Assembly (NCBI GenBank): GCA_004022145.1
Contig: RCNU01000013.1
Reading direction: 5' to 3' (one strand)
Source of the DNA: Paecilomyces variotii
Taxonomy: Eukaryota
Length of the DNA stretch: 64,000 nt
In this document: positions 24,568 to 30,526 of the stretch, one piece after another
How the letters are laid out: each line of letters begins with the position of its first letter
Position numbering within the stretch: position 1 is the stretch's first letter
Made by a program: the position numbers and the translations under genes
Notes under the pieces: generated by a model
What the model was told of the DNA's origin: nothing
Databases searched by the model: none
What the model saw: the letters and a program-made list of their open reading frames with translations, nothing else

Positions 24568-26575
24568 TCATTTCTGAAGCTGAGGGCTGGGCTGAGTACC
24601 GGTTCTGTGTTGGTTTTCAGGTCCTGTTTGCGCCTCCTGTTCGAGGAAATTGGACCATAACTCGGCTAGTGATTCTCTGCTGGCGTTTCCGCTGTCCATG
24701 AACTCAGATACCAATGACGGTGTGCTGGGGTTACGATGCATCGTGGCGCTTGGAACTCTTAGGCGGCTGGATGCAGTTGAAGTGCCTGGTCGTGCTAGAC
24801 CTGCTTGCTCTCGTTGTTCTTATTCGATTTATTGTTAGTCCCAGGTCGTAAAGTGGTAAGGACATACTATCATCATACGTACCGTCAGTCCATCCCAGAA
24901 GTGCTGCGATTAGCTGTAGAATCTGGAATTTCTTAGGGTCTGATCGATCCAGGGCGAGGAAGTGCAGTAGATGGTTGGTAACAATGTGCCTAGAAGAAAT
25001 TAGCGGAGATTCGATAGGAACCACCTGAGAGATTTGACGGACCTGTCAACATTGTCTTCTGGTTTTCCTCGTTTGAGAAATCTCAGAGCTTTCGTAAGAT
25101 GGTCGTTAAGTGTAACTGCTTCATGTCTCAACTTCCCAATGAGAAGATTCTTCTCTTTCACTTCCTTCTCAAACGGTAGCAACCTCTCCAGCTCTTTCTG
25201 GGCGTGTTGGAGTGCTTCTTGAGCTTCAGACTCCCTCTTCTCCGCGTTACGGACGGACTGCCTGAGCTCCTCGAGCTGAGCATCAGAGCTCTCCACAAGC
25301 TCACGCAGTTCCTTTTTACGCGCTGCAGGACCGGTCAGCTGCTTTATCCTGATGAAATGCCAAGGGGAAAGACTTGCCTGTTTGAATTTCTTGGAGGGCT
25401 CGCTGAAGACCGTCAACGGTCACTGCTTGACTATCGCGCTCAGATACAGCCTTTTCATACGCCTCCCTAAGGGCGGAGAGCTGTTCTTCAATGTCGACAA
25501 CTTTCCCTTCGAGATTTTCTCGGATGGACCGTTCTTCCATAGCAAGAACCTCCCAGTTGTGCATGGCTTGTTTCGCTTCCTCGAATTCGGTCCGGAGGTA
25601 GGTTTCTTGCTCAAGCAGCTCTTCTTTCTCCTTGAGCCAATTTTGTTGCGACAAGCTCGTCCGATCCCGCAGGATAGAAAGCTCCTTCGATCGTTGTTCG
25701 GCTTCTTCCGCCATTACCGATAACTCTGATGTCTTTGCATCTAACTCGGCATTCAAGTTCGAGTTCTGCTCCTCTAATTCTTCTATCCGAGCACGGGCTT
25801 GACCGATTTCTTCCTGTGTGTCGGCTTAGCAGCGGACTCCAAGAGGGGGCATGCGAATACATACGGCATCCTCCTTTAGCCTTTCTCCGAGCTGCGACTT
25901 GATGGTGTTGACTCTCTCCAGTAGCTTCTGATACTGGCTTTCGGCGCGCTCCTTCTTGCTTTCGGACTCTTCCAATTTCTGTTGTAAATCTTGATTTTCA
26001 TCCCTATGCTTAGACTGGATCTCCTCTAAAGACTTTCGCATCCGCGTCACTTCTTCTCGTAGAGAGTCTCTCTCCCGTACTAGTGCATTGAATCGATCTT
26101 CGGATTCGAGCGGAGTAGAGGCAGATGAATTGTTTGCGACTACATCGTTGTTGGCTTGCGCATCTGAGTTGGAGGACGGATTCGTCCGAACAGGTAGATC
26201 GACATGGTTCGTCCCATCATCTCCATCATCCTCCTGCTCTTCTACCGTCTCTGCCTCGCTCTCTTTAACGGAGTCGCCATCCCCATCCTATTACGCATGG
26301 TCAGCGCCAGGTTGTAAATGGAATCTCTGAGACCGCACGCACAGCAGCACCAGAATTCAATGGCCCCGGCTCATTTTCTAATTGTGAGGTATCATTTGAC
26401 TGCTCGTTCTTCGCCTTGTTCTTCGCCGCGGACTTCTTGTTCTTCTTATTCTTCGACTTTGCGCCTATTGCGACGACGACGACGACGACGACTGTTAGAC
26501 TGGAACGGGACTGTCTTTTTGTGCTTGAGGGGTCAACGAACCTTGAGCGATAGCAGACGGTGCGCCTGCAGGCAT
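24568..26575 (-). CDS. RUD3: Golgi matrix coiled-coil protein with GRAB/GRIP-related domain (Rud3-like), 7 exons
   Basis: Long coiled coil; EVKEKNLLIGKLRHEAVTLNDHLTKALRFLK...NVDRHIVTNHLLHFLALDRSDPKKFQILQLIAALLGWTD; ESLAELWSNFLEQEA. Confidence 0.85.
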
Positions 26576-27795: not shown

Positions 27796-28685
27796 TTACA
27801 TGAAATCGTCAAGGAAATCCGGATCCCGGTCCTGGTTGCTGCTCATTTGGAGATTCTCCTCGCTGAACATGTCATCATAGGCATGTTCCTTTTGCCATTT
27901 CATCTCTTCCCTCTGCTTCTTGGCCTTCTTTTCCTCGGCTTTCTTTTCCTCCCTTAGCCGCCTCTCCTCTTTTCGCTGTTTCTTCAGATATTCTTCCTTC
28001 TCAGCCATCAGATCCGGGAACTTTTCGACTTTTGTCTTGTTTAGGCGGTTCACGATCGCATTTTCACGTGCGGGGACGAAAACCTTCTTGACCATCTTCG
28101 GGTTGTGGAAAGAGACCTGACCGACTGCCATCGATGCGTTCTTCATCAGGTTCGACCATGGCGTGTAGATCACGGTTATGTTATCTTTCTTGTTTCCTGG
28201 TTCGATATGAGCCGCAGTTCAGGAGTTTCATGGAGCGTGATAGCTACCGTCAATGGAGTTCGCTTTGGTGAGTTGGGCACAGTCATCGAGAAGCTCTTGG
28301 GGGATCTTATCCCAAGTTTCATTGTCGCGGAGTCGCAGGTAGATATGCGCACTGGAAAGATTGTCGACATGGAACTGGAAGAGGTATCAAGACATATCAG
28401 ACGAGGTTCTATCAACGCAACAGCTGCGGGCGAGGCAACCAACCCTATGAGTCCATCACGTCAGAGTTCCAGCACTCAGAAAACAGCGGGAATTTTTGTT
28501 TCGATCACAGTACCAGACGTCCTTCTCTAGTCCATATTTGATAAGATCCTCATCTGAAGGGGTGTCTGTCAGAGCAAGCTTAGGCATATCGAAGAAAGAA
28601 AGACTGTCGTACTCTCGTATTTGTCCTTCCCCGCGTAGATAAAAGCCGAGGGACTGACCACGTTCGATGTGTAATAGTACACCAT
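27796..28685 (-). CDS. CCDC25/Jlp2-like NFACT-R (DUF814) protein; includes a 1-nt exon at 28444
   Basis: Spliced: [53 protein letters not shown]...[29 protein letters not shown]...[13 protein letters not shown]...[15 protein letters not shown]. Confidence 0.93.
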
Positions 28686-30526
28686 TTTGACCTAGAATTC
28701 AAAACTGGACACAGAAGAGATGCGGTCGGCTCAGCGACGATGTCAAACTGTCTCTGGCACAGGCCAAATGGTGGACGGTCATCCAAGAGCGTGGGGCATC
28801 GCAAATCAACTTTTTTGTCCCTCTCCGTCCGTATCTGGTAAAAGTATGCTTAGTCATCCGTATATAGTTGCTGCTTTGGTTCCTTGAGTATTAAATAACA
28901 ATTACAGTTATTAACTAACTAGTCGTATTATTATCGTCTAGGAACTCAAAATTCCTAATTCAGTGTTCTGCCTCGTGTCTGTTTAAGCTCATAGCTGACT
29001 TTGATCTCAGAGGGTGATTATCATGCTGCTTAGACTATCTACCAGCATTGGCCACCAATTATCAGAAGGATAGTTATGCTGAATGATTCTAATGGGCAGT
29101 GGCTTCAATAGTGATTCAAGGCGGTGGACTTTTGCGAGGGCAAAGGATCTCACCCACTCATTATCATTAACTATGCCATCTCATACATGGCTTACGCCCG
29201 AAAGTAGGATAATCATCTCGTGTCATTAAACACGTCTCGGTATAAAGCAGGATATGCGTGCACAGTTGACACGCAAATATGTACTTGCATGTGCATACAT
29301 ATATACATACATACGTACATGCCCAGTACCCTACTCAGATGTCGACCTGGTAATATTATAATAACGTATATCCGCCAGAGGATACTTATCTCTGGTGGCC
29401 AATTATCAATCCTTTACGCCGTCGATACTGCAACCCTTTTGTTATTCCACCCCCGGTTCTGTGCTAGCTAGCTTGTCCGACACCTGCCTGGATAGGTAGT
29501 CGAAGACTCTCCGTGACTACTGCAGAGATTCTCGGCGTGTTTGCAGCCGTGGACCATACAGAACCTGAGATACGTAGTTCCTTCGGAGTCATTTCATGGA
29601 CAAGGCTCTCTCCGCACGGCTGCCACTCTCGACTTCCCCGTGCCGCAGCTTCGGCTTGACTTATCCGAAACCTTGTCTGGCCTACATCGGCTCATCCAAC
29701 ACTTCCCTCTCGACAGCTTCCAGGCGCCGTCCAACTCTGCTTCAGGAAATACGATCATCCAAAGTCCTATCTAAGTACGGAGTGCTAACCCTTCTGCAGC
29801 TTGCGGGCTTTGCACTGACATCTAGTCCTGCCACCTGCCTTTTTGGGCTGCTCCCTAGTCTACTGCGGCTATTCTTTGGTAGATAGCCCAGTGCAGTTCT
29901 ATCTTCCTCCGTCTTATATTTCTTCCTTGAACCCCGAAGTCGCTTCACACCATGATCATGTTCGGCATCCTGGTTGACGTGCGGCTGCTTTACAACCATT
30001 CATCGGGGCCCAAGCGTCCAACCAGGGAACTCTTCACGGTCCAGATGCGAATGATACGATAAGCATTCTCCCTACCCGCAGGGATTGCTCTGTACTGGAG
30101 AATGGTTCGTGAAGTCGTGACCCCTGGACCAGGTAGCGTATAGGCCCGCGGAAAATCTCACATAATCGTGTCTAAAGTACGAGACCAGTGGACCCGTGTG
30201 GAAGTTTGAAGAGAAAACTGGAGGATAGATACACGCTTATGGATGGAGGAGTGGTAAATTGGCTAACGTCTAGTTGATGCTCGCGGCCACGCGTATGCCT
30301 ATCCCCTGCAGCGGGTCTTGATGGAGAAAAGGGTCTACTACTGTACCTCTCGGGGTTCCATCGTTTCATTCCAAATTCCTCCCCGTTCCGGGATGTTGTG
30401 ACGGAGCTCCCGATCGACCCCATACGTTCCAACGACCAGCCGTATGATGAAACATGTCGGTCAGGTCTCCGTTCAGGACCGCTTAGGGCGTGGTCGACCG
30501 TTAACGGAGGTGTCTTGACCAAGGTG

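Follow-up and report, generated by a model that had tools for sequence, protein, structure and literature searches.

A very probable one-nucleotide exon in the CCDC25/Jlp2 gene of Paecilomyces variotii and its conservation at orthologous loci

Introduction

Can a lone G, set between the acceptor of one short intron and the donor of the next, be an exon in its own right? We address this question for the CCDC25/Jlp2 gene of Paecilomyces variotii, which lies on the minus strand of a stretch of 64,000 nucleotides from contig RCNU01000013.1, here called the window. A sequence-only reading of the window had proposed that the G at 28444 is a single exonic base between two complete introns and that it completes the Trp codon of the family motif D-V-W-F-H-V-D. 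The same reading described one-nucleotide exons as very rare, which is right, though such exons have already been documented in plants and fungi.

Results and discussion

The gene and its encoded protein

When the five exons (28685-28613, 28553-28514, 28444, 28374-28248 and 28196-27796) are joined with the G included, they give an open frame of 642 nt that encodes 213 amino acids. The features of the gene are as follows, with the basis of each in brackets.

28613..28685, minus strand: coding part of exon 1, 73 nt, with the ATG at 28685-28683 and an end in phase 1 (exon joining and RNA contigs of runs X17 and X20)
28554..28612, minus strand: intron 1, 59 nt, GTACGA...CTGAC...TTCAG (joint from 28553 to 28613 in X17 and X20)
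28514..28553, minus strand: exon 2, 40 nt, ending in ...GAC GTC TG, the last two letters being bases 1-2 of the Trp38 codon (sequence)
28445..28513, minus strand: upstream intron, "A", 69 nt, GTACTG...TCTGAC...CATAG (sequence and orthologues)
28465-28460, minus strand: branch-like TCTGAC of intron A, with its A at 28461, 16 nt before the 3' end (hand-counted positions)
28444..28444, minus strand: very probable one-base exon, G, the third base of the Trp38 codon TGG (mRNA contigs and conservation)
28375..28443, minus strand: downstream intron, "B", 69 nt, GTTGGT...CTGAT...TTCCAG (sequence)
28400-28396, minus strand: branch-like CTGAT of intron B, with its A at 28397, 22 nt before the 3' end (sequence)
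28248..28374, minus strand: exon 4, 127 nt, starting TTC CAT GTC GAC (F39 H40 V41 D42) and holding the core of the NFACT-R_1 domain (Pfam)
28197..28247, minus strand: intron 4, 51 nt, GTAGCT...CCAG (joint from 28195/6 to 28247/8, a skip of 51, in X17)
27796..28196, minus strand: coding part of exon 5, C-terminal coiled-coil region, with the stop TAA at 27798-27796 (sequence and Pfam)

The positions and bases that had been given for exon 2, the two central introns, the G and exon 4 are all correct on the minus strand. All four introns (59, 69, 69 and 51 nt) run from GT to AG, and intron B has a second branch-like motif, TTGAT, 12 nt before its end. Joining the exons by coordinate but without the G at 28444 shifts the frame to ...DVCSMSTIF..., after which it stops; this confirms the earlier statement that excision of all 139 nt as one intron would break the frame. 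The companion statement, that an exon 2 ending past TGG would leave a non-GT donor, also holds, as the donor would be TACTGT.

The assignment of the gene to the CCDC25/JLP2 family with an NFACT-R domain, as first proposed, is borne out by two observations. Exon 4 alone matches Pfam NFACT-R_1 (PF05670) with 37.9 bits, above the gathering cut-off of 29.8, and its homologues carry the names coiled-coil domain-containing protein 25 (CCDC25), Protein JLP2 and DUF814 protein. Exon 5 extends the NFACT-R_1 profile (positions 78-112) with 23.4 bits, which is below threshold, and is 100% identical over 132 amino acids to the public Paecilomyces variotii protein P0121, an identity that places the window in this species or one very close to it. 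According to the accessible text of a preprint, yeast Jlp2 is a peptidyl-tRNA release factor that needs His44, which is equivalent to His41 of CCDC25 (10.1101/2025.09.04.673968). In the window the histidine of FHVD is His40, two residues past the split Trp38, and its motif and position suggest that it corresponds to the reported catalytic residue.

Outside the gene, minus-strand frames at 25000-26300, downstream of it, gave coiled-coil matches that were sub-threshold only. An intergenic low-complexity stretch rich in GTAT/GTATGTAT lies upstream of the gene at about 29270-29320 on the minus strand.

The genomic bases are confirmed in contigs

One-base homopolymer slips are a common artefact, and if the real genome had an extra G at one of the outer splice sites, the whole arrangement would reduce to one 139-nt GT-AG intron. 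The contigs of four runs (X1, X16, X17 and X20) contain no inserted or deleted letters, and those of X1 and X16 show none at the outer splice sites. One X1 contig spans 27700-28760 with 0 differences from the window over 1061 bases; the kind of this run is unrecorded, we took it as DNA from an isolate on the strength of its label, and it may be the window's own source and hence non-independent. Two unspliced contigs of X16 overlap on 28437-28446, where the bases are unchanged, and all sampled words recur in 14 runs, either DNA or unlabelled, that belong to several studies. Moreover, an error in one genome cannot explain the same arrangement at the 44 independent orthologous loci described below. 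On these contigs the check for an extra G that had been called for did not overturn the structure, and we regard an assembly or sequencing error as having a negligible chance of being correct.

The mature mRNA retains one G

A search matched 24 runs, of which 20 contain the stretch and 6 of these are recorded as RNA. The four runs that were aligned (X1, X16, X17 and X20) were read as Logan contigs rather than raw reads, a form in which rare isoforms, RNA ends and levels are unreadable. The spliced junction is visible in X17 only, a metatranscriptome, in two contigs that join 28373 to 28512 and so skip 138 nt rather than 139, reading GTCTGGTTCCAT. The first of these contigs (238 nt, depth 199) runs through exon 4, exon 2 and exon 1, while the second (84 nt, depth 22) covers the junction again; the summed depth is 221, there are 32 letters on the shorter side, and two bases fit either side. 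TGGTTC is thus read across the junction, as the proposal of a lone exonic G had predicted for cDNA. In the same run the gene's two remaining joints, which skip 59 and 51 nt, run from CT to AC on the plus strand and so have canonical GT..AG ends.

X17 differs from the window by G>A (plus strand) at 27829 in exon 5 and at 28719 upstream of the ATG, and because of these two differences its contigs most simply derive from another strain, the differences being strain variation. X16 gave unspliced contigs only, with adapter ends. X20 has low depth and does not cover 28384-28455, and contains the joint between exon 1 and exon 2 (skip of 59). To look for another species in which the structure is accompanied by a spliced transcript, the 44 double-intron loci described below were compared with all stored proteins; the best matches reached 88-92% over 51 amino acids and none was exact, so that no further confirmation by RNA emerged.

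Taken alone, the letters of the mRNA fit retention of any of three identical Gs, at 28513, 28444 or 28375. The contigs are to be weighed against a single non-canonical intron of 138 nt (UA..AG or GU..CA) that is excised in one step and in which the central AG-G-GT is irrelevant. The aligner did place the RNA joint as a single skip of 138 nt whose position can shift by 2 bases, and no intermediate was observed. None of the three equivalent placements of such a cut has GT-AG ends, and the orthologous loci bear on the same point.

The AG-G-GT centre is conserved while the introns are not

An alignment of the exon-5 region yielded 80 orthologous loci from metagenome contigs, which contain no DNA of outgroups (basidiomycetes, animals, plants), and the exon 2 and exon 4 motifs were located in them by script. 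Three loci lack the exon 4 motif, one is cut off and three fail the exon 2 pattern, showing ...TGGTTCCAC instead, which leaves 73 scored. Among the latter, 27 have TGG directly before TTY and 46 have an intervening sequence, and the exact arrangement TG/gt..ag/G/gt..ag/TTY is found at 44 of these 46 loci, or in 36 of the 38 distinct sequences. The AG-G-GT split is unique in every case (both halves being at least 44 nt and starting with GT). The pattern occurs far more often than by chance, as shuffling of the interiors produced a usable AG-G-GT 103 times in 7400 (1.4%). The alignment of orthologues that had been suggested as a check on AG-G-GT thus came out in its favour.

With the window included there are 37 distinct pairs of introns. 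Both the upstream and the downstream intron have GT..AG ends in 37/37, and the median length is 56 nt for upstream and downstream introns alike. The donor has a G at +5 in 31/37 upstream and 26/37 downstream introns, and YTRAY occurs 5-45 nt before the 3' end in 30/37 and 26/37, respectively. The intron sequences cannot be aligned between distant loci. The total intervening length is 100-256 nt, mostly 100-140, which is twice what introns 1 and 4 measure in these genes.

These properties argue against excision in one step. In a single 138-nt intron the centre should drift, yet AG-G-GT persists amid introns that are unalignable; it is also preceded by a branch-like motif and followed by a +5 G at the frequencies just given, and the total lengths would be double those of the neighbouring introns. 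We therefore consider a single 138-nt intron very unlikely, and the conservation of AG-G-GT is our main argument that the retained base is the one at 28444 and that two introns, rather than one odd intron, are excised. The base is flanked by GT..AG introns, is present in mRNA (in one run), breaks the frame when omitted and is confirmed in genomic contigs. The RNA contigs and the deep conservation together uphold the reading that a lone G, flanked by two complete introns, supplies the last base of the Trp codon in D-V-W-F-H-V-D. We conclude with high confidence that the CCDC25/Jlp2 orthologue has a true one-nucleotide exon at 28444, and X17, the one sample in which the spliced junction is visible, includes it.

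The two introns are nearly always kept or lost together

Among the orthologous loci, 30 are without both introns, two have the downstream intron only and none has the upstream intron alone. Intron 1 occupies the corresponding site in 68 of the 73 scored loci, whereas 3 lack it and 2 are not scorable for it. The 27 scored intron-less loci comprise 6 that keep introns 1 and 4, 15 that keep intron 1 only, 3 with neither and 3 that are partly unscorable; in the first six, therefore, only the pair has been lost.

Lineages were assigned by best match to named proteins, a rough measure that uses summed scores. By this measure the double-intron loci resemble Eurotiomycetes (Eurotiales, Verrucariales-like), Sordariomycetes, Pleosporales-like Dothideomycetes and lichen-forming lineages, and the intron-less loci resemble mostly other Dothideomycetes, with some Leotiomycete-like and some Diaporthales-like. 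A gene tree, which is not a species tree, was built from 77 rows, of which 45 have both introns (the window among them), 30 have neither and 2 have one, and from 204 columns with the junction columns excluded. It needs 6 state changes, and well-supported branches demand at least 3 of them. We estimate that the pair predates the split of the Eurotiomycete-, Sordariomycete- and Dothideomycete-like lineages, and it appears that the pair is normally lost only as a pair.

The two loci with the downstream position only (L074:2303-2340 and L080:2295-2332) have a single 35-nt intron past TGG with a conserved CTRATCGGAG end, in a lineage in which the introns at the scored positions of the gene are 30-44 nt long. 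A protein search for this lineage gave unnamed relatives at 77-89% and named ones, from many classes, at no more than 77% (the best covering 74% of the query). We also asked whether the pair arose by recent duplication and rejected this, given that A and B resemble each other no more within a locus than A and B taken from different loci (mean score 0.000 vs -0.039).

Removal of the two introns

Short fungal introns are generally taken to be recognised across themselves (intron definition), and this would hold for A and B. Both 69-nt introns have their own GT donor, CTRAY element and YAG acceptor, and standard GT-AG splicing would join TG, G and TTC and so restore Trp38, two residues ahead of His40 in FHVD. 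Two spliceosomes presumably cannot occupy the site together, because the acceptor of A (AG/G) and the donor of B (G/GT) share bases, and introns A and B would thus be excised one after the other. If intron A were removed first, the step would formally be a recursive splice that keeps one base, with TGG/GTTGGT then serving as the donor. The sequence-only reading had held that ordered two-step splicing is needed. The sequence does not require this, given that all six signals of the two introns (donor, branch-like element and acceptor of each) are intact before splicing and that either order of removal would give the same mRNA.

No contig of the aligned runs, for which contigs only were read, represents a singly spliced intermediate (a skip of 69 nt), and the two-step route therefore rests on the conservation of the central AG-G-GT. 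Intron B is the sole one of the four introns that has cover in X17. The contig concerned (28346-28441, depth 19.8 vs about 200-300 on the exons) continues into exon 4, and at its other end it falls 2 nt short of the intron's first base (28443). Cover of B but not of A would be unexpected for one indivisible 138-nt intron. The cover could reflect slow removal of B or a lariat intermediate, although contigs cannot show ends or levels. In X20 a low-depth contig has lost intron 1 by splicing yet still includes the first 43 nt of intron A, so that the hints from X17 and X20 on the order of splicing are weak and conflicting.

A regulatory role is possible but improbable

A one-base exon might also act as a regulated switch, in which skipping of the G (frameshift, premature stop, decay) tunes the protein level. 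Such skipping would shift the frame right before the histidine of FHVD and lead to a stop codon, and the arrangement has been kept in many lineages. Long retention needs no function, though, because short fungal introns are lost slowly, and 30 of the 77 scored loci (the window counted) lack the pair. In addition, the 139-nt skip (the GTCTGTTCCAT form) is absent from the X17 contigs at a 5% listing threshold, with the proviso that contigs drop rare forms, and decay is the less certain because the premature stop would probably fall in the last exon. We therefore judge a real exon that doubles as a switch to be unlikely.

A further possibility, to which we give a similarly low chance, is that AG-G-GT marks an obligate upstream-first splice of recursive type, kept since before the main filamentous ascomycete classes split because it couples the output of a ribosome-rescue factor to the accuracy of the spliceosome. 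If this were so, slips (skipping of the G, or in-frame loss of Val-Trp through a GTNTGG donor 5 nt upstream) would destroy or delete the residues just before the catalytic histidine, and impaired splicing would yield less active Jlp2/CCDC25. Such coupling would also explain loss of the introns only as a pair.

Comparison with known one-base exons and related systems

The closest parallel is provided by the CYP621A P450 genes of Fusarium, for which the available text describes a one-nucleotide exon in 20-24 genes within one genus (PMC12940212). As there, the present gene is a nuclear fungal gene with an AGGGT centre (AG/G/GT), in which the G supplies the missing base of a codon in a conserved motif and its omission breaks the phase; the Fusarium exon is likewise described as backed by public RNA reads and missed by annotation (PMC12940212). 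The two differ in that the base is the third of a Trp codon here and the middle one of a Gly codon there (PMC12940212). They differ also in range, the Fusarium exon being reported from one genus, whereas the pair described here occurs at loci that resemble several filamentous ascomycete classes, in a widely conserved gene of single-copy type.

Arabidopsis APC11 has, in the portion of the report seen, a constitutive 1-nt exon between two GT-AG introns, and reporter constructs indicated that the identity of the base is immaterial (PMC4674806). Its authors argue for intron definition and sequential "recursive" removal, much as we do (PMC4674806). In contrast to the plant gene, the base here must be G for Trp to be encoded, and the present work is computational only. 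A long-read annotation of Coprinopsis cinerea is reported to list 13 one-nt exons in 13 genes and to illustrate, as here, that fungal 1-nt exons break gene models when they are missed (PMC12230235). That catalogue covers one basidiomycete, and its accessible passages contain no analysis of conservation (PMC12230235). Its 13 genes might include the CCDC25 orthologue.

Zero-nucleotide ratchet points, as described in the accessible parts of two reports on Drosophila, are juxtaposed acceptors and donors within very long introns at which no base is kept (10.1101/006163, PMC8605326). The likeness, which extends to the letters only, is that after removal of A a donor would lie directly past the upstream exon (TGG/GTTGGT). 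Unlike those ratchet points, the site here keeps one base, its parts are about 50-70 nt long and its second donor exists before splicing; AG is not directly followed by GT without a retained base, which sets AG-G-GT apart from a zero-nucleotide recursive site. In stwintrons, by the accounts available to us, the inner of two introns splits a splice signal of the outer intron, and no base of the intervening sequence is kept (PMC5639578, PMC5587772). These resemble our case in that two spliceosomal introns share one short intervening sequence of a filamentous ascomycete and would be removed in consecutive reactions. We rejected a stwintron, as no signal is interrupted, one base stays in the mRNA and removal of the full 139 nt shifts the frame.

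The CCDC25/Jlp2 case adds a new one-base exon to a known and rare kind, and its conservation is the widest among the cases found: 44 loci that resemble several ascomycete classes keep AG-G-GT while the surrounding introns have diverged beyond alignment. Besides this breadth, it stands out by the near-exclusive loss of the introns as a pair, by its position two codons before the histidine reported as catalytic and by the frequency of annotation errors. It offers a test bed for how intron-defined spliceosomes handle an acceptor and a donor one base apart, for the order in which two such introns are removed, and for the origin and loss of intron positions one base apart. Among the papers listed by our literature searches, none links CCDC25, Jlp2 or DUF814 to a micro-exon; the Coprinopsis and Fusarium supplements and JGI exon tables could hold the gene.

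Errors at the junction in public gene models

The public Paecilomyces variotii model of 205 amino acids, which is identical to the window's gene over the last exon, omits WFHVDNLSS and with it the putative catalytic histidine. It reads ...EKDVCAHIYLRL, having taken an internal CAG as the acceptor, as follows.

28352..28354, minus strand: internal CAG taken as acceptor by the public 205-aa model

A joint to this acceptor (28354-28352) was not seen among the RNA contigs. We classified public models with two anchor motifs in three result lists, of which 340 models were read and 204 were scorable. Of these 204 models, 118 keep the VWFHxD motif whole and the other 86 are wrong at the junction. The lists compare as follows.

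Near-length list: 57 of 120 anchored; 25 intact; 32 wrong (13 with the VCAH artefact, 9 with an insertion before FHVD, 7 with Val-Trp dropped, 3 other); 63 without anchors, unscored
Long list (at least 232 aa, hence enriched in errors): 77 of 120 anchored; 33 intact; 44 wrong; 43 without anchors, unscored
New ids from the last protein search: 70 of 100 anchored; 60 intact; 10 wrong; 30 without anchors, unscored

The VCAH artefact of the 13 near-length models is the same as that in the public model of the window's gene. Wrong models include entries labelled Paecilomyces, Aspergillus flavus, Talaromyces, Trichophyton and Penicillium, and unanchored ones labelled A. fumigatus, A. niger, Coccidioides and Rasamsonia look mis-modelled by eye. 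The intact near-length models of 213 aa carry mostly JGI-type Aspergillus locus tags. Several wrong models lose the histidine that is reported, in the preprint text available, as needed for peptide release by Jlp2 (10.1101/2025.09.04.673968), and comparative or structural work on such entries would be misled.

Two kinds of error bear on the splice sites themselves. The letters GTNTGG at the Val-Trp codons are donor-like (28515-28519 in the window, GTCTG), and 17 models across the three lists drop Val-Trp in frame; a joint of this kind is absent from X17. Other models read through, translating G+GTCAGT, G+GTATGG or G+GTACNT in frame (Penicillium, Thermothielavioides, Sclerophora), which would fit the same one-base-exon structure in named taxa. 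Thermoascus crustaceus P0001 had been a candidate for a single upstream (phase-2) intron. This was rejected, as the residues past "...MLPG" are a read-through into the start of a second intron, judging by loci L002, L004 and L007, which share the exon-2 peptide with it.

Finally, some public Talaromyces models of 731-746 aa have CCDC25 fused to a GRIP-domain protein (PF10375), which is probably a false fusion of a mis-modelled CCDC25 with its downstream neighbour.
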